Assembly (NCBI GenBank): GCA_028284345.1
Contig: JANQRY010000007.1
Location: 5,269-69,268 of the forward strand
Length of the DNA stretch: 64,000 nucleotides
Direction of reading: 5' to 3'
Source: Hyphococcus sp.
Lineage (GTDB): Bacteria > Pseudomonadota > Alphaproteobacteria > Caulobacterales > Parvularculaceae
Shown: positions 3,408 to 43,347 of the stretch, piece after piece
Layout of the letters: each line of letters starts with the position of its first letter
Numbering within the stretch: the first letter of the stretch is position 1
The notes under the pieces: generated by a model
What the model saw: the letters and a program-made list of their open reading frames with translations, nothing else
What the model was told of the DNA's origin: nothing
The model's database searches: none
Program-made: the position numbers and the translations under genes

Positions 3408-4118
3408 ATGCTGTCGCTGCTTGAACGACTTTCACGAAGGCTCGCCGATGACGGCGTGGGGGCGACGGCGGAACACCTTCGCATGCGCGCCCATGAGCGC
3501 TATCGCGACTGGCGCCTCGGCGTTGATACATGCGGGGCCATTTCCTCCAGCGCCTTGGGCGGCGATGCGTCTTGCGTCGACTACGAGCCGGTAAACTACA
3601 AATGCCTTGATGCGGCCATGGATTACCTCGATGTGCGCGCAGGCGAGGACGTGTTTCTCGACTATGGATGCGGCAAGGGGCGCGCCGTGGCTTACGCCGC
3701 GACAATGCCCTTCCGGAGGATCATCGGCGTCGATCGCGCGCCGGAACTATGCGCGGCGGCGAAAGACAATTTGCGCCGCATCAAACCGCCCGTGCGCTGC
3801 GCCGATATCGACATCGTCACGGCGGACGCGCGCGTCTTCGATCCGCCGGACGATGCAACCGTCATTTTCATGTTCAACCCGTTCACGGGACAGATACTCG
3901 CCGATGTTCAGGAAAAGATCCGGCAATCCCTGGCGCGCGCGCCGCGGAAAATGACGCTGATTTATCTCTATCCCCATCAGCGCCAGGAGGATGCGTTCGC
4001 CGGGCGGCCATGGATCAGAAAAACCTGTGAATTGCCGACCCGCTCCTGGCGCAGCATTTCGACTCTCGCCATCTACGAAAGCGTCAACGACGCCGCCGCG
4101 GCGAACGCAGCGGAATAG
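3408..4118 (+). CDS. Class I SAM-dependent methyltransferase
   Basis: FLDYGCGKG motif I, IIGVD, DAR and FMFNPF. Confidence 0.85.
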   Translation: MLSLLERLSRRLADDGVGATAEHLRMRAHERYRDWRLGVDTCGAISSSALGGDASCVDYEPVNYKCLDAAMDYLDVRAGEDVFLDYGCGKGRAVAYAATMPFRRIIGVDRAPELCAAAKDNLRRIKPPVRCADIDIVTADARVFDPPDDATVIFMFNPFTGQILADVQEKIRQSLARAPRKMTLIYLYPHQRQEDAFAGRPWIRKTCELPTRSWRSISTLAIYESVNDAAAANAAE

Positions 4119-4184
4119 TCGGGCGCCGCGATCCCTTGGCAGTGTCTTAATTTAAGCTTGAAGCGGCGTTCTTATCTGGTTCCG

Positions 4185-4312
4185 GTCATTCCGGACAAGC
4201 GCGCCTTGGCGCGCGCAGATCCGGAACCCATGGCTCAACATTTAAGACCTTATTGCGTTTCGGCTTCAGTCCCTGGATTCCGGGTTCGACCTGACGGTCG
4301 CCCCGGAATGAC
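4185..4312. repeat. Palindromic REP/RPE-like element (GTCATTCCGG...CCGGAATGAC)
   Basis: Perfect 10-bp terminal inverted repeat with two internal hairpins. A degenerate outer inverted repeat lies at 4141-4153 / 4342-4354. Confidence 0.8.
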
Positions 4313-4438
4313 AAAAGGGTAAATGTCGGTCATTGGATTTCAAACTGAGACGCTACTAATCCTGTTTTCTCCTTGGCCGAGCCCTTTGACCAACCCCCGC
4401 GCTGCGGCCTAGCATGGGGTAAAACCGGGGAGAGGCTG

Positions 4439-4819
4439 ATGTCGGACGCGAAAAAACAACCTGTCGGCTCCGTCGGCTGGCGGGATCTGACCGTTGAAAA
4501 TGCGGACGACGTACGCGACTTTTACGCCGCCGTGACGGGATGGACCGTACACGAAACGTCCATGGGCGATTATTCCGACTACACCATGATGGACGCGAAT
4601 GGCGAAGCGGTCGGCGGCGTCTGTCATGCGCGGGGGCCGAACGCCGATCTTCCAGCCCAATGGCTGATCTATGTGGTCGTTGAAAATCTCGAAAAGAGCC
4701 TCGACGAAACCCTGAAACGCGGCGGCGACGTGGTCGCGCCGCCGCGCGGGCTCATGGGCGGCAAGATGGCGGTGATCAAGGACCCCGCCGGCGCCGTCCT
4801 TGCGCTGTGGGAGGAATAG
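4439..4819 (+). CDS. VOC / glyoxalase-bleomycin resistance family protein
   Basis: GSVGWRDL...FYAAVTGW...WLIYVVVENLE...IKDPAGAVLALWE. Start moved to ATG 4439, which follows GGGGAGAGG. Confidence 0.88.
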   Translation: MSDAKKQPVGSVGWRDLTVENADDVRDFYAAVTGWTVHETSMGDYSDYTMMDANGEAVGGVCHARGPNADLPAQWLIYVVVENLEKSLDETLKRGGDVVAPPRGLMGGKMAVIKDPAGAVLALWEE

Positions 4820-4833
4820 GACGGGCCGCCGCC

Positions 4834-6075
4834 ATGTCGACTGACGTTTTCCTCAGCTATTCGTCGAAAGACCGGGACAAGGTCCGCCAGATCGTCGCCG
4901 CGCTTGAAGACGCCAACCTCTCCGTGTGGTGGGACCGCGAAATCGGCGCCGGCGTCATGTTCGAACGCAAGATCGAAGAAGCGCTCGACAACGCCAAATG
5001 CGTCGTTGTCGTCTGGTCGCGCGACTCCGTGGAGTCGGACTGGGTGCGCGCCGAAGCCCATGAGGGCCTCTCCCGCGGGGTGCTGGCGCCGTTGATCATC
5101 GACGATGCGAAACCGCCGCTCGCCTTCCGCCAGACCCATCACGTCAAGCTGAACGAAGGGGTGGACGCGCTGGTCGGCGAGGTTCGCCGTATTGTCGCCG
5201 AGAACGAAAAGGAGCCCGACCTTTCTGCACGCGTTCACTATGTAACGACGCCGGATAATGTGAGGCTCGCCTATGTGCGCCAGGGTGCTGGCCCGTCAGT
5301 TGTCAGAAGTCTCGGCTGGTCGACAAGCTGTGCGCTTGAGCTAAGCGGCGAAAACGCCCTGACCAATGCGCTCATCCGTGATTTCGATTTTATTTCCTAT
5401 GACGGGCGCGGCGGCGGCATGTCGGCGCGCGGGGATTTCAAGTGGTCGATCGAAGAACGCTTATGCGACCTTGAAACGGTGATCGACGCGGCGGACCTGA
5501 AAGAAAAGTTCGTCCTTTTCGGCATTTCCGAAGGGAGCCGCGCTGCGATCCTTTACGCTGACAAATATCCGGAGCGCGTCTCGCATCTCGTGCTCGATTC
5601 GCCGTCCCTGCCGTTCATTAATCCCGGTAAAGACGACTACGCATCGATGGCGTGGCTTGTCGACTTTGTGCGCGATCATTGGGGTACGGAAAACCCGCTT
5701 GCGAGCCGGATGATTTGTTCCATCTGGAGCCAGTCGGCGACGCCGGGAGAGCAACGCACCTTCATGCGCCGCCAGCGTGAAAGCATGAGCGCGGAGGCGG
5801 CGTCGCGATATATTTATTTAACGGGAACGCAAAATCTCGACCCGGGGCTGTCAAACCGCATCTGGAGCGCCGTCGCCGCCTTGAAAATCCCGACACTGGT
5901 CTTTCACACGATTGACGATCCGCTGGCGGCGTACGATCTTTCAAAGAAACTGGCGGAAACGGCGCCTAATGCGGAACTCGTGACGTCAACGCTGCCCGAT
6001 CATGGATGCGTCCTCAGCGCGTCTTTTTCGCGGCTGCAGGCGAAGGAAGTGCGGCGGTTTGTTTTAGGGCGCTAG
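4834..6075 (+). CDS. TIR_2 domain fused to alpha/beta-hydrolase
   Basis: N-terminal DVFLSYSSKDR...VWWDREI...CVVVVWSRDSVESDWVRAEA is a TIR. C-terminal YDGRGGGMS, GISEG nucleophile elbow and YPERVSHLVL. Confidence 0.88.
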   Translation: MSTDVFLSYSSKDRDKVRQIVAALEDANLSVWWDREIGAGVMFERKIEEALDNAKCVVVVWSRDSVESDWVRAEAHEGLSRGVLAPLIIDDAKPPLAFRQTHHVKLNEGVDALVGEVRRIVAENEKEPDLSARVHYVTTPDNVRLAYVRQGAGPSVVRSLGWSTSCALELSGENALTNALIRDFDFISYDGRGGGMSARGDFKWSIEERLCDLETVIDAADLKEKFVLFGISEGSRAAILYADKYPERVSHLVLDSPSLPFINPGKDDYASMAWLVDFVRDHWGTENPLASRMICSIWSQSATPGEQRTFMRRQRESMSAEAASRYIYLTGTQNLDPGLSNRIWSAVAALKIPTLVFHTIDDPLAAYDLSKKLAETAPNAELVTSTLPDHGCVLSASFSRLQAKEVRRFVLGR

Positions 6076-6106
6076 CCCCACCGAAAACCAGTTGATCTAA
6101 TTCCCG

Positions 6107-6220
6107 CCCTCATCCTGAGGAGGGCGCGTCAGCGCCCGTCTCGAAGGATATGTGGCAGGCGCTGTGCTCGCGGCTGATCCTTCGAGACGCAAGGCTTCGC
6201 CTTGCTCCTCAGGATGAGGG
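6107..6220. repeat. Palindromic REP/RPE-like element (CCCTCATCCTGAGGAG...CTCCTCAGGATGAGGG)
   Basis: 16-bp terminal inverted repeat, inner GTCTCGAAGGA/TCCTTCGAGAC stem and two side hairpins. It lies between convergent genes. Confidence 0.85.
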
Positions 6221-6271
6221 TGGCGCGTGGATCAAGGCAGCTTCGATACGCTCTAAGCGGCGGCCCTCGCG

Positions 6272-7198
6272 TCAGGAGATCCCAAACTTCTCCAGCGCGG
6301 CTTTTGCAATCGGCTCGCCCCATTCCTGGACGAAATGGCCGGCCTCGGCGACCTCCATCGGTTCCGGACAATTGCGGATGATCTTTTTGAGGATGTGCAT
6401 CGCCTTGGGGCCGAGCACCGGGTCCTGCATGCCGATGGCCATGAAACTGTCGCCGGTCCAGTCCTCTGACCAGAACTGCCGCGCCTTGAGCGAGGTCTCG
6501 ACGCCTTCCGACGACAAGGGCGTTAAGTCCTTGCCTTCCTCTTTCAACATGACGAGTTCCGGGAAGCGGCGCACGCCGCCTTTGTAGGACTGATCCGGGA
6601 AGGGCGCGTCATAGGCGGCGGCCTCCGCATCGGAAAGGATCGGCGTCGCCCGTTTCATCAGCCCGCCGACGTTGAGATCGGGATTGGCGCGGTTGAAGGC
6701 GCGCCATTGGGCGAAGCCCTGGCCCGCTTCCTCGCCGCCCGGGAGCCCCGTATTCATGACGATGAGCCGCGTATAGCGCTCGGGCGCGGCCATGGGCAGG
6801 GTGAGGCCGAGAAGCCCGCCCCAGTCCTGCACGACGAGGCAGACATTTTTAAGGTCAAGCTTCTCGACAAAAGCGAGGAGGGCGTTCCGATGAAAATGAT
6901 AGGTGTAGGTCTCATCGTCGACCGGCTTGTCCGAGCGTCCGAAGCCGAACATGTCGACGGCGACGGCGCGATGGCCGGCTCCCGTAAAGACGGGGATCAT
7001 CTTGCGGAAAAGATAGGCCCATGACGGTTCGCCGTGGATGCACAGGAAGGTAACGTCTGCATCTGCGGGGCCCGTGTCCGCATAATGCATGCGCAGACCC
7101 TCGTAGCCCTTGAGGTCATCTACATAGTTCGGCGCATAATCCCAGCCGGGGAGGTTGTCGAACCGGTCGTCGGGGGTGCGGAGCGCTTCAATGGTCAT
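6272..7198 (-). CDS. Haloalkane dehalogenase, DhlA-like
   Basis: LRTPDDRFDNLP, HGEPSWAYLFRKMIP, VVQDWGG (nucleophile Asp followed by Trp) and AGHFVQE. Confidence 0.88.
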   Translation of the reverse strand: MTIEALRTPDDRFDNLPGWDYAPNYVDDLKGYEGLRMHYADTGPADADVTFLCIHGEPSWAYLFRKMIPVFTGAGHRAVAVDMFGFGRSDKPVDDETYTYHFHRNALLAFVEKLDLKNVCLVVQDWGGLLGLTLPMAAPERYTRLIVMNTGLPGGEEAGQGFAQWRAFNRANPDLNVGGLMKRATPILSDAEAAAYDAPFPDQSYKGGVRRFPELVMLKEEGKDLTPLSSEGVETSLKARQFWSEDWTGDSFMAIGMQDPVLGPKAMHILKKIIRNCPEPMEVAEAGHFVQEWGEPIAKAALEKFGIS

Positions 7199-34089: not shown

Positions 34090-36078
34090 ATGGCGCATAT
34101 TTTCATCAGCTACGCCCGCGCCGATCGGCCGACGATCGAAAAGCTGGCGAGCGTGCTTGAAAGCGCCGGGCACTCCGTCTGGTGGGACAGACATATTCGC
34201 GGCGGCGCAGCCTTTGCAAAAGACATTGAGGCGCAGCTTCAAAAAGCCGACGCTATTGTCGTCGCCTGGTCCGCCGCGGCGAATGAATCGGACTGGGTGA
34301 AGGACGAAGCGGTGTTCGCCCGCGACAAGGGCGTCCTGATCCCGATCTGTCTCGACGCTGCCGAGGCGCCCCTCGGTTTCCGCCAGTATCAGACCCTTGA
34401 GTTCGAAAAGTGGCGGGGCGACGCCGAGGCAAGCGCCGTTCAGTCGTTGCTCGGCGCCATTGCCGATCTCAGCGGGGCGGAGCGGCCGCTCGCGGCGGCG
34501 CCTGCGCCGACATCGTTTGCGGCGCGGGTGCAATCGGACAAGCGGTACTGGGCGGCGGCCGTTGTCGTCGCCATCGCGTTGATCGCCGGGATTTTCCTGC
34601 TGCGGGGCGCGCCGGCGCCGGATGTCGGCGGCGCGGCGGAAAGGGAGCGCAGCGCCGCGTCCGCAGAGAGCGCGCCGTCAATCGCGGTTTTGCCGTTCGC
34701 GGATATGTCGCCCGACGGCAATCAGGAATATTTTGCCGACGGCCTGTCGGAAGAGCTACTGAACGTTCTGGTGCGCGTCGACGGTCTGCAGGTCGCCTCG
34801 CGCACGTCATCCTTCGCGCTCAAGGGCAGGGTTTTATCGATTGCCGAGATCGCCGAGCGCCTTAACGTTGATCATGTGCTCGAAGGCAGCGTGCGCAAGA
34901 TGAACAACCGTGTGCGCATCACCGCGCAGTTGATCGACGCCAACACCGACAAACACCTCTGGTCCGAAACCTATGACCGGCATCTGTCGGACATCTTTCG
35001 CATACAGGACGAGATCGCGACGGCGGTTGTCGGCGCCTTGCGCGAGGAGCTGGGCATTGCCGATGATGCGCCGATCGAAATTCGTCCTGCGACGGAGGAT
35101 CTCACCGCCTACGACGCTTATCTGAAGGCGCGCGAACTGTATCTCGCGCGCGGGAAAGCGAATGTCGCCGAATCCATGCGTCTTTTTGAGCAGGCGGTTG
35201 AGTTGGACCCGAGATTCGCCCGCGGATGGGAGGGGCTCGCCGGCGTCTACGCCATTGCCACGAGCTGGGGCATTCTTGACCGGGATTATTCGGCGATGTC
35301 GCTGGTGGCGGCGAAGAGAGCGCTGGAGATCGACCCGGATTTATCCGCGCCCTATGCGGTGATCGGGCTGACCTACCGCACCCACTATCCGACGCCATGG
35401 GCGGAATCGATCGACAATCTGCAAAAAGCGATCGAGCGCGACCGGAAGGCGACGGATCCCGTTCTCTGGCTCGGCATGAATTACGTGGCCGTGGGCGATA
35501 TTGACGGAGCGATTGAAACCTTCGGCAAATGTCTTGAGATGGACCCGGCCCATAAGCTTTGCCGCAAATATCGTTCGCTTTCCTATCTGACGAAAGGCGA
35601 TACGCGGAGAGCCGTCGCGGACGCCACGATCAACGCGGAAGTTGGATATTACTCCGACTTCGACGCCTATATCCCGCATTTTCTCGGCAGGGGCGAGCGG
35701 CTGCTCGCGTTTACGATCTCGCGCACGGTCAACTGGTGGTCGAATTTTCCGCATCAGGAACTCATCGCAGCAATTGAAGACGGCGATAATCCGTCATCGG
35801 AACGAATTCAGAAATTCATGCGATGGGGCGCCGATCAGAACGTCAAGGTCAGGAGCCACGCCCACACCATGTTGACCATCCGCGCCTATGAAAACCTTAC
35901 CGTCGACAACTGGAACAATGATTATGAAATGCTGTGGCTGCCGCAGTTTTCGCATTTCCGCCAGTCGTCGGAATTTAAACAGCTCGCCGGCGATCTGGGA
36001 CTCACGGCCTATTGGCGCGAGCATGGCTTTCCGCCCCAATGCAGGGCGCTGGGCGACCTTGATTTCGAATGTAGCTAG
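34090..36078 (+). CDS. TIR_2 - TM - TolB-like - TPR membrane protein
   Basis: HIFISYARADR...WWDRHI...SDWVKDEA (TIR), TM YWAAAVVVAIALIAGIFLL, SIAVLPFADMS...EYFADGLSEELL (TolB_N-like), TPR-like helices and C-terminal YWR..GFPPQC...DFEC. Confidence 0.87.
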   Translation: MAHIFISYARADRPTIEKLASVLESAGHSVWWDRHIRGGAAFAKDIEAQLQKADAIVVAWSAAANESDWVKDEAVFARDKGVLIPICLDAAEAPLGFRQYQTLEFEKWRGDAEASAVQSLLGAIADLSGAERPLAAAPAPTSFAARVQSDKRYWAAAVVVAIALIAGIFLLRGAPAPDVGGAAERERSAASAESAPSIAVLPFADMSPDGNQEYFADGLSEELLNVLVRVDGLQVASRTSSFALKGRVLSIAEIAERLNVDHVLEGSVRKMNNRVRITAQLIDANTDKHLWSETYDRHLSDIFRIQDEIATAVVGALREELGIADDAPIEIRPATEDLTAYDAYLKARELYLARGKANVAESMRLFEQAVELDPRFARGWEGLAGVYAIATSWGILDRDYSAMSLVAAKRALEIDPDLSAPYAVIGLTYRTHYPTPWAESIDNLQKAIERDRKATDPVLWLGMNYVAVGDIDGAIETFGKCLEMDPAHKLCRKYRSLSYLTKGDTRRAVADATINAEVGYYSDFDAYIPHFLGRGERLLAFTISRTVNWWSNFPHQELIAAIEDGDNPSSERIQKFMRWGADQNVKVRSHAHTMLTIRAYENLTVDNWNNDYEMLWLPQFSHFRQSSEFKQLAGDLGLTAYWREHGFPPQCRALGDLDFECS

Positions 36079-38291
36079 GCCGCCGCGCGCCGTGTTCGCG
36101 GATTGACGTTGCGCAGGATCAGCGCTCGCCACGCCCAGCGCAGGAGCGCCAGGATCGTCGCCGGCACAAACGCAATGGTGAGCCAGAGCGCCAGCGCTTC
36201 GGCGGGGAGCGCGGAGGCGATCAGCAGCCCGGCGTAAGCGGCGACGGCAAAGAGCGAAACGACAACAGCGACGCGCGCAACCGGGCGCAGGCCGACGATC
36301 CAGAAAAAGCCTTTAAACAGTAACGCGATCAGCAACAGGGCGAAGGCGATGACGAAACCCTTCGCCAGCAAGTACAATCCACGCCCCGGGTCTTTTGCAA
36401 AGTTCACCGGCACCGGCGCTTGGCTGGAGACGAAGGCCGGCGGCGTATCGATCGCCATGGGAAGGTCGATGGCGGAATCGATGTGGCCCATGGTGACGCG
36501 GTTCTCGCCGTCCGCCGCGCGCCAGATGCGCGCCGTATTGTCCCGGGAGCCGGAAACGATCCACTCGCCGTCGCTTGTTGAGTCGAGACCGCGCACGCCG
36601 TCCTTGTGCCCTTCCAGTTCGCGCGCCATGGCTCCGGACGCGATGTCCCAGACGCGAATGACGGGATCAACGCCGCTCGTGGCGAGGACGGCGTCGCCGT
36701 CCGCAAAGGCCACCGAGAAGGCCCGCTCTGCGCCGTGGTTGAGGCTCGTCACAAGGTTGTTGTCGATGGTGCGCCAGACCCGAATGACGCCGTTGTCGGC
36801 GGCCGCGGCGAACATCGATCCGTTATTGGAGAACTTCACGTCATTGCCCGGCCCGCCGATGGACAGGGAGACGAGGCGCGCGCCGGAACGCCAGTTCCAG
36901 AGCGACACCGTGCCGTCGGCCGAGGCCGCCGCCAGAATGTCGCCGTCCGGGTGGAAATCGACCGCGTTGATATCGTCTACATGAATCGAAAGCGTGCGCA
37001 GCCGGTCGCCGGTTTCTGGATTCCAGAGGATAATCAAATTGTCGCTCGACGCGGTCGCGACCGCGGCGCCGTCCGGCGACCAGGCGACGTCGTAAACGCT
37101 GGCGCCGTGGCCGCTCAGCGTCGTGATGGGTTTTGCGTTGCCGGTGTCCCAGACAATCGCCGTGCGGTCGCGCGACGCAGAGACGGCGCGAGCGCCGTCC
37201 GGCGAGAAATCCGCGCCCCAAATCCAGCATTTGTTTTCATCATCGGCGCAGTTTTCCTTGTGACCGACAAATTCGCCCCGTTCGACCCCGGTCGCCGCGT
37301 CCCACAGCTTGATCGTATTGTCGTCGGATGCCGTCACGACATAACGCCCGCTCGCATCGAATGTAACGCTGTTGATGTCGGCGCCTTCGATGCCTTTGAC
37401 CTGCACCCCTTCGAGCGCGGCCGCATAGATGCGGCCTTCAAGAACGAGGGGCGAAATGGTGATCAACGAAAACAGGATGAGCGCAATATAAGATCGCGGC
37501 AGCAAGGCCAGCGAGGCGGCGCCGGCGGCGCGATCGGCCTCCAGCGTTCCGTACCGTGACAAAAAGGCGAGAACGCCCATGGCCGCGATGAAAATCGGGC
37601 GGTAGGCCGCGAAGACAAAGTCAGACGCATAGGCTAGGGCGCCGAAGGCGGCGGCGATCAGCACCGCCATGAACACGGCCTGACCGAACAGCGCCAGGCG
37701 CCGGCGCGAACCCGTCGTCGTGTATTTGGACGCGCGTTTTGAAACCTTGGACGGCGATTTGCGCGCCGGCTTGGGTTTCGTTTTCGGCTTTGGGGGCGGA
37801 ACGGGTTTGGGCTTTTCCGCTTCCGGCGCCGGTTTCGGTGCTTCCGGCTCGGGCTGCGGCTCAGGTTCCGGCCGGCGGTCCGGCGCGCCGGCGCCCGCTT
37901 TTGCGCCCTCGGCGACGGCGTCGATAAACGCCTTGAACGCATTGTCGTTTACATTGCCGCGCCAGTGGGTGAGGTCCGCCGTCTGAATCTGCCGAAAGCC
38001 GAGCGGTATATCCACGTTGTCGATGAGCGCCGGAAAGAGAATATCACGCGCCGCGCCTTCGTCCGCTTCGTCAGCGACGAACCGCGAGGCCACGGAATGT
38101 CGCGACCAGATGACGATAACGGACCGCGTGGAACTCAGCGCTTCGGAAATTTCCTGGCGAAAGCCTGCGCCGGTTTTGATTTTCGGGTCCCACCAGACGT
38201 GGAGGCCCTTTTGGCCGAGCGCGTTTGCGATCTTCTCGACCTTCGCGCGATCCTCGCGCGAATAGGAAATGAATACGTCGTGATGCCCCAA
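36075..38291 (-). CDS. TIR_2 - Pro/Lys linker - 3 TM - 7x WD40 - 3 TM membrane protein
   Basis: DVFISYSREDR...WWDPKI...SRFVADEA (TIR). Seven WD repeats end in IKLWD, AIVWD, IILWN, VSLWN, IRVWR, IRVWD and ARIWR. Two clusters of three hydrophobic segments. Confidence 0.87.
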   Translation of the reverse strand: MGHHDVFISYSREDRAKVEKIANALGQKGLHVWWDPKIKTGAGFRQEISEALSSTRSVIVIWSRHSVASRFVADEADEGAARDILFPALIDNVDIPLGFRQIQTADLTHWRGNVNDNAFKAFIDAVAEGAKAGAGAPDRRPEPEPQPEPEAPKPAPEAEKPKPVPPPKPKTKPKPARKSPSKVSKRASKYTTTGSRRRLALFGQAVFMAVLIAAAFGALAYASDFVFAAYRPIFIAAMGVLAFLSRYGTLEADRAAGAASLALLPRSYIALILFSLITISPLVLEGRIYAAALEGVQVKGIEGADINSVTFDASGRYVVTASDDNTIKLWDAATGVERGEFVGHKENCADDENKCWIWGADFSPDGARAVSASRDRTAIVWDTGNAKPITTLSGHGASVYDVAWSPDGAAVATASSDNLIILWNPETGDRLRTLSIHVDDINAVDFHPDGDILAAASADGTVSLWNWRSGARLVSLSIGGPGNDVKFSNNGSMFAAAADNGVIRVWRTIDNNLVTSLNHGAERAFSVAFADGDAVLATSGVDPVIRVWDIASGAMARELEGHKDGVRGLDSTSDGEWIVSGSRDNTARIWRAADGENRVTMGHIDSAIDLPMAIDTPPAFVSSQAPVPVNFAKDPGRGLYLLAKGFVIAFALLLIALLFKGFFWIVGLRPVARVAVVVSLFAVAAYAGLLIASALPAEALALWLTIAFVPATILALLRWAWRALILRNVNPRTRRAAA

Positions 38292-42494: not shown

Positions 42495-42537
42495 GCTGCT
42501 ATTGAATTCAGTTTAGGTCGTTTACATATGGTTGTGT

Positions 42538-43347
42538 ATGGTGACGCAACCTACGATTGAACTGTTTTCCGAGTTTCTTGATGATATTATTGCGTGTGCG
42601 ACCGAGGAATTGGGTCGTGCTTTGGCGCAAGCAAGGCTCAGACTTGGGCGAGATAATGCGCAATATTCTTCTCGCGCTTTGCACGTCATTTTTGACATAG
42701 CGCACAAGGAATATAATGCCGCATTGGACAGAGCGTTTGGTGCGTTAAAGCAAGCAAATGAGAAGTCCGGCTTGAACACGGAAGAATTGCGTAGCATCAC
42801 CGAATCAAAGCTGCGAGAGTTCGCCGAATCAGTGAAACAAATGAATAGAGCGGAGAAACTCCCACAAGCATGTCTTGGAACTATGGGCAGCTACGTTGGC
42901 GATCAGCTGCTAAAGTTCGACAAACGGTTGGATTTTTTGCTTAGGCAATTTGATGCGGGATTTTATGAGCCTGCTTGCGCGGAAATCGTTGCGCCTATGA
43001 AAAATACTATCAATATTTCGAATATGGACGGTGGGGCCATACAACAAGGCACGCAACAATCAACACAGAATATCTCTATACAAATTGATCAAGCGCAAAC
43101 GCTCTCATCTCTCCGCGAGTTTGAGAATGCGCTGAGTGAATTAAAGATCAATCAAGACACGATGGCGAGCGTTCAGGGTGATATCGACACGATAAAAGCA
43201 CAGCTCGCAAAACCTAACCCGTCAGAATCCATTATCTTAGAGGCGGGGCGTTCATTGAAAAACGTTGTTGAAAACGTCATTGCGGGTGTGTTGACACCAC
43301 CAGTGTCAAACGCAGCCGCTGCTTTATGGGCTGCGCTAAGTTTGTAA
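42538..43347 (+). CDS. Hypothetical protein, low GC, probably horizontally acquired
   Basis: Open frame of about 270 codons in an AT-rich patch (hand-counted lines about 40-45% GC). Mostly helical. C-terminal IQQGTQQSTQN...DIDTIKAQLAKPNP region. Confidence 0.75.
   Translation: MVTQPTIELFSEFLDDIIACATEELGRALAQARLRLGRDNAQYSSRALHVIFDIAHKEYNAALDRAFGALKQANEKSGLNTEELRSITESKLREFAESVKQMNRAEKLPQACLGTMGSYVGDQLLKFDKRLDFLLRQFDAGFYEPACAEIVAPMKNTINISNMDGGAIQQGTQQSTQNISIQIDQAQTLSSLREFENALSELKINQDTMASVQGDIDTIKAQLAKPNPSESIILEAGRSLKNVVENVIAGVLTPPVSNAAAALWAALSL

Follow-up and report, generated by a model that had tools for sequence, protein, structure and literature searches.

We analysed a gene, P0001, that joins a TIR domain to an alpha/beta-hydrolase in a 64,000-nucleotide (nt) stretch of contig JANQRY010000007.1 from Hyphococcus sp., a marine alphaproteobacterium; this whole stretch is called the window below. 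The gene is a single open reading frame (ORF) that starts with ATG at position 4834 and ends with TAG at 6073-6075 (Table 1). An alternative GTG start at 4807 is unlikely, because the sequence MS(A/T)DVF opens all homologues. The N-terminal TIR with its WVRAE motif and the C-terminal hydrolase with its GISEG motif and late aspartate and histidine, described in the first-pass annotation of this DNA, were all located in this frame. P0001 combines in one chain an immune-type TIR, which probably cleaves nicotinamide adenine dinucleotide (NAD), and an esterase-like domain.

Table 1. Coordinates of the fusion gene, its parts and other features considered (window positions unless another locus is named)
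Feature	Position	Strand	Basis or remark
TIR-alpha/beta-hydrolase fusion gene P0001	4834..6075	+	one ORF, 413 amino acids (aa) and stop
TIR_2 domain, residues 1-128	4834..5217	+	Pfam, AlphaFold2 (AF2) model
WVRAE motif, W70-V-R-A-E74	5041..5055	+	Glu74 codon 5053-5055, predicted catalytic
Alpha/beta-hydrolase domain, residues 129-413	5218..6072	+	Pfam, PDB profiles, AF2, Foldseek
Hydrolase lid, five helices, residues 270-348	5641-5877	+	AF2 model
Ser232, predicted nucleophile in G-I-S-E-G	5527..5529	+	conservation
Asp362, triad acid in I-D-D-P	5917..5919	+	conservation
His390, triad histidine in P-D-H-G	6001..6003	+	conservation
VOC/glyoxalase-family gene, 126 aa from ATG	4439..4819	+	Pfam; neighbour, not component
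Repeated palindromic MITE/REP-like element	6082..6240	.	spacer downstream of fusion gene
VOC-haloalkane dehalogenase junction, indel hot spot in genus	window 4819-6272; L087 1490-1505; L085 454-1929		
Other two TIR_2 genes of the window	34090-36078; 36075-38291	+; -	genome contig C7

The fusion gene and its family

The domain assignment is supported by both sequence profiles and structural modelling. In Pfam, residues 5-109 match TIR_2 (PF13676; E-value 6e-25, 88.5 bits against a cut-off of 28), and residues 179-383 match Hydrolase_4 (E-value 3e-13) and Abhydrolase_1 (E-value 1e-11), both over the curated cut-offs. The AF2 model of P0001, built with 15 homologues, is confident (pLDDT 86, pTM 0.70). 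It predicts a flavodoxin-like TIR, a linker of about eight residues, and a canonical hydrolase core with a helical lid. The modelled strands (E) and helices (H) of the TIR are E5-8, H11-26, H43-53, E56-61, H69-81, E84-88 and H110-125. The region of the BB-loop, residues 36-42, is modelled with low confidence and is disordered.

The family of such fusions is real and rare. A search of 5.8 billion clustered proteins yielded 15 full-length two-domain clusters, with identity decreasing from 85% down to 29%. A further 16 fusions came from an exhaustive profile search among 1.84 billion representatives, which makes 31 proteins altogether, all with the same domain order. When ten of the 16 added proteins were scanned with Pfam, all ten had an N-terminal TIR_2 and a C-terminal hydrolase. 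The fusions are spread over Alpha- and Gammaproteobacteria, even at identities down to 29%. Among 185,579 species genomes, only five carry the fusion: two metagenome-assembled genomes (MAGs) of Marinicaulis, one of which is a complete chromosome, a Pseudomonadales MAG, an uncultured alphaproteobacterium, and a Caulobacteraceae MAG. No published description of the TIR-alpha/beta-hydrolase architecture was found in a literature search.

The predicted catalytic residues are conserved in this family. The TIR glutamate and the hydrolase serine are kept in all 31 fusions; the triad acid is kept in all 29 complete sequences, and the triad histidine in 27 of these 29. Ser232, Asp362 and His390 are invariant in the alignments A1 and A2. 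This pattern points to both active sites being under selection. The two ways in which the first-pass annotation might have failed, an assembly or frameshift artefact joining two genes and the inactivity of the domains, are no longer of concern: the same architecture in 31 proteins from independent assemblies, including the complete chromosome OZ253943.1, rules out the artefact, so that the fusion is genuine, and both predicted catalytic centres look intact.

Relatives of the two domains and their recurrent joining

The hydrolase belongs to a group of modules that rarely occur alone. Profiles of PDB structures match it to esterases, lactonases and aryl esterases (E-value 2e-24), and Foldseek gives a probability of 1.00 to esterases, with TM-scores up to 0.83 on the target. 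Structurally, it is most similar to small soluble esterases and lactonases. A profile that included the TIR gave 7861 matches at E-value <= 1e-30, and in most of the best 150 of them the match covers the hydrolase part alone. The module is found in proteins of up to 3463 aa (representative library P0122-P0268) and is nearly always part of a multi-domain protein; only 6 of 130 members stand alone. The partners among the 101 closest non-TIR relatives are winged-helix (Trans_reg_C) with BTAD domains (18), class III cyclases (Guanylate_cyc, 13), Ser/Thr kinases (Pkinase, 9), LuxR/GerE domains (7), REC domains (2) and AraC domains (2). Thus the LuxR, winged-helix and cyclase partners named for this hydrolase subtype in the first-pass annotation were indeed observed, and Ser/Thr kinases can be added to them. 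The module is located C-terminally to kinase, cyclase, BTAD or TIR domains, and N-terminally to GerE or cyclase domains. Its order relative to the partners matches the slot where those outputs normally carry a sensor.

The hydrolase of P0001 clusters in one branch of the cyclase-, BTAD-, LuxR- and kinase-fused subfamily. It shares with this signalling-fused subfamily the positions D141, G151, G153, W162, R192-G193, S232, D362 and H390, at 27-34% overall identity. Hydrolase-cyclase proteins of the LipJ/Rv1900c type, SARP(BTAD)-hydrolase, hydrolase-LuxR and kinase-hydrolase proteins resemble P0001 in having a hydrolase of the same subfamily next to a signalling output, whereas the output partner in P0001 is a TIR. 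To our knowledge, such hydrolase-signalling fusions are uncharacterised except LipJ. P0001 is not an orthologue of LipJ (NF058673), since it scores 18 bits against the NCBIfam cut-off of 800 and has no cyclase domain. Among 166 relatives of the module, the serine is kept in 163, an acidic residue (Asp or Glu) in all 166, and the histidine in 160, leaving the triad intact in about 95%. Eight of the 166 modules lack the serine or the histidine and still reside in multi-domain proteins.

The closest solved relatives of the TIR domain are AbTir of Acinetobacter baumannii (PDB 7uwg, 8g83), BtpA/TcpB (4lzp, 4lqc) and PdTIR (3h16), with E-values from 1e-7 to 1e-2. They have the same TIR_2 fold and the same Trp and Glu of the W-x-x-x-E motif. 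Glu74 aligns with the Glu of the WTNYE helix in the AbTir NADase, the best solved match; this residue is E208 of AbTir, and the Trp four residues earlier is W204. However, the TIR domains of these proteins are C-terminal and preceded by a coiled coil or by nothing, whereas the TIR of P0001 is N-terminal and fused to a complete serine hydrolase; the identity is about 30% over 75 residues.

TIR domains that are 50-62% identical to that of P0001 are placed N-terminally to TPR/TolB-like, FGE-sulfatase and kinase modules. Another arrangement was observed in 16 clusters of proteins of about 275 aa (P0047, P0051, P0064, P0078 and 12 others), which have an N-terminal receiver (REC) with the phospho-acceptor Asp and a C-terminal TIR, about 50% identical, with the motif SDWVRAE. 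These form one clade in the TIR tree. Judging by its domain composition, such a protein is a response regulator with TIR as the output; we know of no experimental work on receiver-TIR response regulators. More generally, the TIR clade of P0001 seems to behave as an output domain, and the W-x-x-x-E motif is retained in most of this clade. The putative sensor partner of the TIR in P0001, which has an intact catalytic Glu, is undescribed for TIR domains in the literature that we found.

The two domains were joined repeatedly and independently, as their trees show. A careful maximum-likelihood tree of hydrolases was constructed from 21 TIR-fused rows and 38 others, these comparison rows being picked after a quick tree had been seen. 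On this tree the presence of TIR changes 13 times, and at least ten changes are forced by well-supported branches. Forcing the TIR-fused rows into one clade costs 523 log-likelihood units (approximately unbiased test, p = 1.8e-69). The quick tree of 166 rows produces the same scattered picture. The hydrolase-fused TIR domains are also scattered on the TIR tree, with 11 changes, at least four of them forced, this tree being based on few alignment columns. A case in point is P0124, whose TIR is nearest to TIR-TPR proteins and whose hydrolase is sister to the clade of the window. In all TIR-hydrolase fusions, the TIR is N-terminal. That the two modules were joined again and again, always in one order, is the strongest evidence for their joint action.

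Genomic neighbourhood and base composition

Of the 25 genomes sampled from the genus, 2 carry the fusion gene. It is preceded by a VOC-family gene with a gap of 14 nt, as noted previously, between the VOC stop at 4819 and the ATG at 4834. The VOC gene occurs beside the fusion only in the Marinicaulis clade (four closely related loci), and it was not found beside the fusion at any other homologue locus examined. VOC orthologues without the fusion were observed in genomes G003, G021, G022 and G023. In G023, the VOC and dehalogenase genes are convergent and their stop codons are 6 nt apart, forming an "empty site"; in G003, an SGL-family gene follows the VOC gene in place of the fusion. The existence of genomes with VOC and without the fusion, together with the differing contents of the junction, indicates that the TIR-hydrolase gene is accessory and has been inserted or lost as an indel at a site that varies between genomes. 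The VOC protein was also considered as a functional partner, but this is ruled out by the phyletic pattern and the empty site of G023.

The spacer downstream of the fusion gene contains a palindromic element that may fold into a nested hairpin of about 150 nt with arms at 6092-6122 and 6205-6235 (-106.5 kcal/mol, z = -10.5). At least five further full or partial copies, 89-98% identical, are present in the genome. These multiple copies make it a repeat family similar to miniature inverted-repeat transposable elements (MITE) or repetitive extragenic palindromes (REP). A scan for promoters and terminators in the region 4050-6400 produced nothing exceeding chance.

The neighbours at the homologue loci examined are housekeeping or metabolic genes, and in most cases the fusion gene and its flanking genes are arranged convergently or divergently. 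Outside the Marinicaulis clade, no gene neighbour is conserved across these loci. Genes of the VOC, GST, MAPEG, GFA and quinone reductase families in several loci hinted at a "detoxification neighbourhood", which was rejected as inconsistent across loci. No defence island was found at the contexts examined, and PADLOC applied to the neighbours matched only a methyltransferase. This class I methyltransferase gene is located two genes upstream of the fusion (3408-4118, plus strand), and its match to the mad2 model (E-value 6e-13) covers the generic methyltransferase core. A connection of the methyltransferase to the TIR gene is improbable, since other genes stand in its place at loci L001 and L002. 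At L001, the methyltransferase gene is substituted by a GGT gene, and a gene of 380 aa and a DAO gene are added.

The first-pass annotation had noted by eye that the hydrolase half of the gene is AT-richer than the TIR half, and suggested a recent fusion. The difference is numerically real: the GC content and the GC content of third codon positions (GC3) are 0.630 and 0.807 in the TIR half, and 0.580 and 0.673 in the hydrolase half, the value of 0.58 being at the 8th percentile of 800-nt segments of the window. However, it is not a sign of recent fusion. The fusion is common to proteins with identity down to 29%, and the GC3 difference is not reproduced in relatives, being reversed at the loci L002, L004, L007 and L009; hence the fusion is not recent. 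The identity to the relatives from the Marinicaulis clade is 81-84% in the TIR half and 78-85% in the hydrolase half, compared to 72-84% for the flanking gene PepA, about 85% for MAPEG, and 83-87% for VOC. Thus the two halves have diverged together and at the pace of the flanking genes, which also contradicts a recent origin. Elsewhere in the window, an ORF at 42516-43344 (plus strand) has a GC content of 0.465 and a GC3 of 0.47, compared to the window average of 0.62 GC.

A candidate one-component signalling protein and its alternatives

We consider it somewhat more probable than its negation that P0001 signals on its own as a cytoplasmic one-component protein, its hydrolase being a catalytically competent "receptor-enzyme" that gates the NADase activity or signal production of the TIR. 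The architecture, the intact catalytic residues, the recurrent fusion and the equivalence of the slots taken by each module are matters of observation. Candidate input and output domains residing in a single chain fit a one-component architecture, and the absence of a conserved neighbour fits a protein carrying both input and output. From here on we infer the assignment of input and output, that is, the direction of control, as well as the chemistry of the ligand. The hydrolase would be the input, its lidded pocket binding, and probably turning over, a small ester-, lactone- or thioester-like ligand. The N-terminal TIR would be the output, an NAD+ glycohydrolase or cyclase whose Glu74 site is completed only when TIR domains associate with each other. 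Occupancy of the pocket by the ligand, or acylation of Ser232, may rearrange the lid and the short linker (about eight residues). This change would permit TIR-TIR assembly followed by cleavage of NAD+ at Glu74, and the outcome might be either depletion of NAD+ or a signal derived from ADP-ribose (ADPR). The need for oligomerisation and the product of the TIR are likewise what we infer.

Both steps of this scheme have parallels. TIR domains complete their NADase sites by assembling with each other via the BB-loop, as SARM1, plant TIRs and AbTir do, and lidded alpha/beta hydrolases can serve as hydrolytic receptors, as in the case of RsbQ of B. subtilis and D14/KAI2 of plants. The likeness of P0001 to RsbQ and D14/KAI2 is conceptual, a triad hydrolase with a helical lid being the ligand-perceiving input; RsbQ and D14/KAI2 are separate proteins that act via partner proteins. 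Their homology to P0001 is apparent only at the level of the fold, and they are not among its top 60 sequence matches or top 50 structural matches. Of the two mechanisms offered by the first-pass annotation, the hydrolase as a ligand sensor gating the TIR fits the sensor and output slots, whereas the hydrolase as an effector gated by a TIR product is disfavoured, since its relatives are partnered with transcription factors.

Several considerations weigh against our reading. The triad being intact in about 95% of the modules suits an ordinary enzyme as well as a receptor-enzyme. The equivalence of slots is an argument from domain architecture, and the direction of control does not follow from it. 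Phage defence or virulence is the role of most bacterial TIR proteins that have been characterised, and a defence role with the hydrolase as the sensor of a phage cue, although unlikely in our opinion, is the main rival reading of P0001. In this case P0001 would be a single-gene abortive-infection protein with the same wiring: the hydrolase would sense a phage molecule or protein, and the TIR would deplete NAD+ so that growth stops. The TIR core does resemble the TIR models of PADLOC (SAVED_TIR, E-value 2e-13; PDC-S66, E-value 6e-13; also ThsB), but these matches span only the generic TIR core, and the NCBIfam models of retron TIRs and Thoeris match the TIR half under their cut-offs. The accessory status of the gene, its position at an indel hot spot beside a MITE-like repeat, and the presence of Trypco2 and Asp_protease_2 genes near one distant homologue speak for a defence gene. 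On the other hand, the contexts examined include no defence island and consist of housekeeping or metabolic genes, the divergence of the gene within the clade keeps pace with that of the flanking genes, and the other partners of the hydrolase are transcription factors, cyclases and kinases.

It is improbable that the signal passes in the opposite direction, so that an ADPR-derived nucleotide made by the TIR activates the fused hydrolase, which would then be a cell-damaging lipase or esterase, similar to the situation in Thoeris or in the plant TIR-EDS1 pathway. In favour of this direction, the family conserves the two active sites, hydrolytic effectors operate in Thoeris and CBASS, and phospholipases and hydrolases are among the putative effectors of Thoeris. 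However, a diffusible signal would be pointless between two domains of one chain, and an effector role would make no sense for a module whose relatives are found beside DNA-binding, cyclase and kinase domains. P0001 resembles ThsB of Thoeris in that the catalytic Glu of its TIR is intact, and it weakly matches the ThsB models. It is not a Thoeris protein, since there is no effector operon in the window or at the other homologue loci examined. A survey of Thoeris types V-XI explicitly discarded stand-alone TIR proteins by design, and the type XI "hydrolase effector", considered as a precedent, proved to be a HIT hydrolase (bioRxiv 10.64898/2025.12.03.692087). The validated Thoeris "hydrolase" effectors are of the HIT and CMP-hydrolase type rather than alpha/beta-hydrolases, and the survey supplements, as far as accessible, contain neither an alpha/beta-hydrolase effector nor a WVRAE TIR. 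The analogy with plants, drawn in the first-pass annotation, holds only at the level of the fold. In both cases a TIR enzyme is linked to a protein of the alpha/beta-hydrolase fold, as in the plant TIR-EDS1-PAD4/SAG101 system. EDS1-family proteins consist of Lipase_3 and EP domains and bind TIR products at the EP interface of the heterodimer. P0001 has no Pfam match to Lipase_3 or EP at E-value <= 0.01, and thus is not EDS1-like beyond the fold. Structures of the EDS1 family are absent among the best sequence-profile and structural matches of the hydrolase, whose relatives are bacterial esterases and lactonases.

We also assign a low probability, of the same order, to a bifunctional metabolic enzyme catalysing consecutive steps, for instance, the removal of an ester and the cleavage of an N-glycosidic bond in a nucleotide- or NAD-related metabolite, without any role in signalling. 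The strict conservation of both catalytic centres, the short linker, and the metabolic or detoxification neighbours (VOC, dehalogenase, MAPEG, GST) agree with such an enzyme. However, no pathway neighbour is conserved at the loci examined, the partners of each module are signalling domains, and the shuffling of sensors and outputs would more typically lead to repeated independent fusion with different TIR lineages. Even slightly less credible is a non-catalytic TIR serving as an adaptor that contacts the five other TIR proteins of the genome and thereby brings several sensors together in a common signalling complex. TIR domains are classic modules of homotypic interaction, and there are six TIR_2 genes in the genome, three of them in the window, while relatives from the genus have up to 15 matches, nearly all of them to TIR. 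On the other hand, the catalytic Glu is present in 31 of 31 fusions, most members of the clade retain W-x-x-x-E, and the closest solved relatives are active NADases.

Bacterial TIR domains have been studied almost only as enzymes of phage defence or virulence. The TIR-hydrolase and receiver-TIR families place a TIR, predicted to be catalytic, in the slot that is usually taken by a cyclase, a kinase or a DNA-binding domain. If the hydrolase of P0001 gates the TIR, this would provide a compact, genetically tractable system for small-molecule switching of TIR assembly, a route to asking whether NAD-derived signals serve ordinary bacterial physiology, and a first way into the function of hydrolase "sensor" modules, a very large class that is uncharacterised. 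As a tentative and rather unlikely generalisation, TIR may be a general-purpose output outside immunity, interchangeable with cyclases, kinases and helix-turn-helix domains, in bacteria similar to Marinicaulis and Hyphococcus and in other Alpha- and Gammaproteobacteria. TIR domains would be wired to REC domains, to TPR/WD40 receptors and to hydrolase receptor-enzymes, and the paralogues (six in this genome) would feed one circuit based on an NAD-derived messenger or on the level of NAD. The TIR-hydrolase would then be a bacterial counterpart of D14/KAI2 coupled to NAD chemistry. The genomes of the genus contain from 0 to 15 matches to P0001. Nearly all of these are to the TIR part, and most lie in ORFs of 550-1100 aa, as would suit a family of receptor-like TIR proteins that has expanded in the genus.

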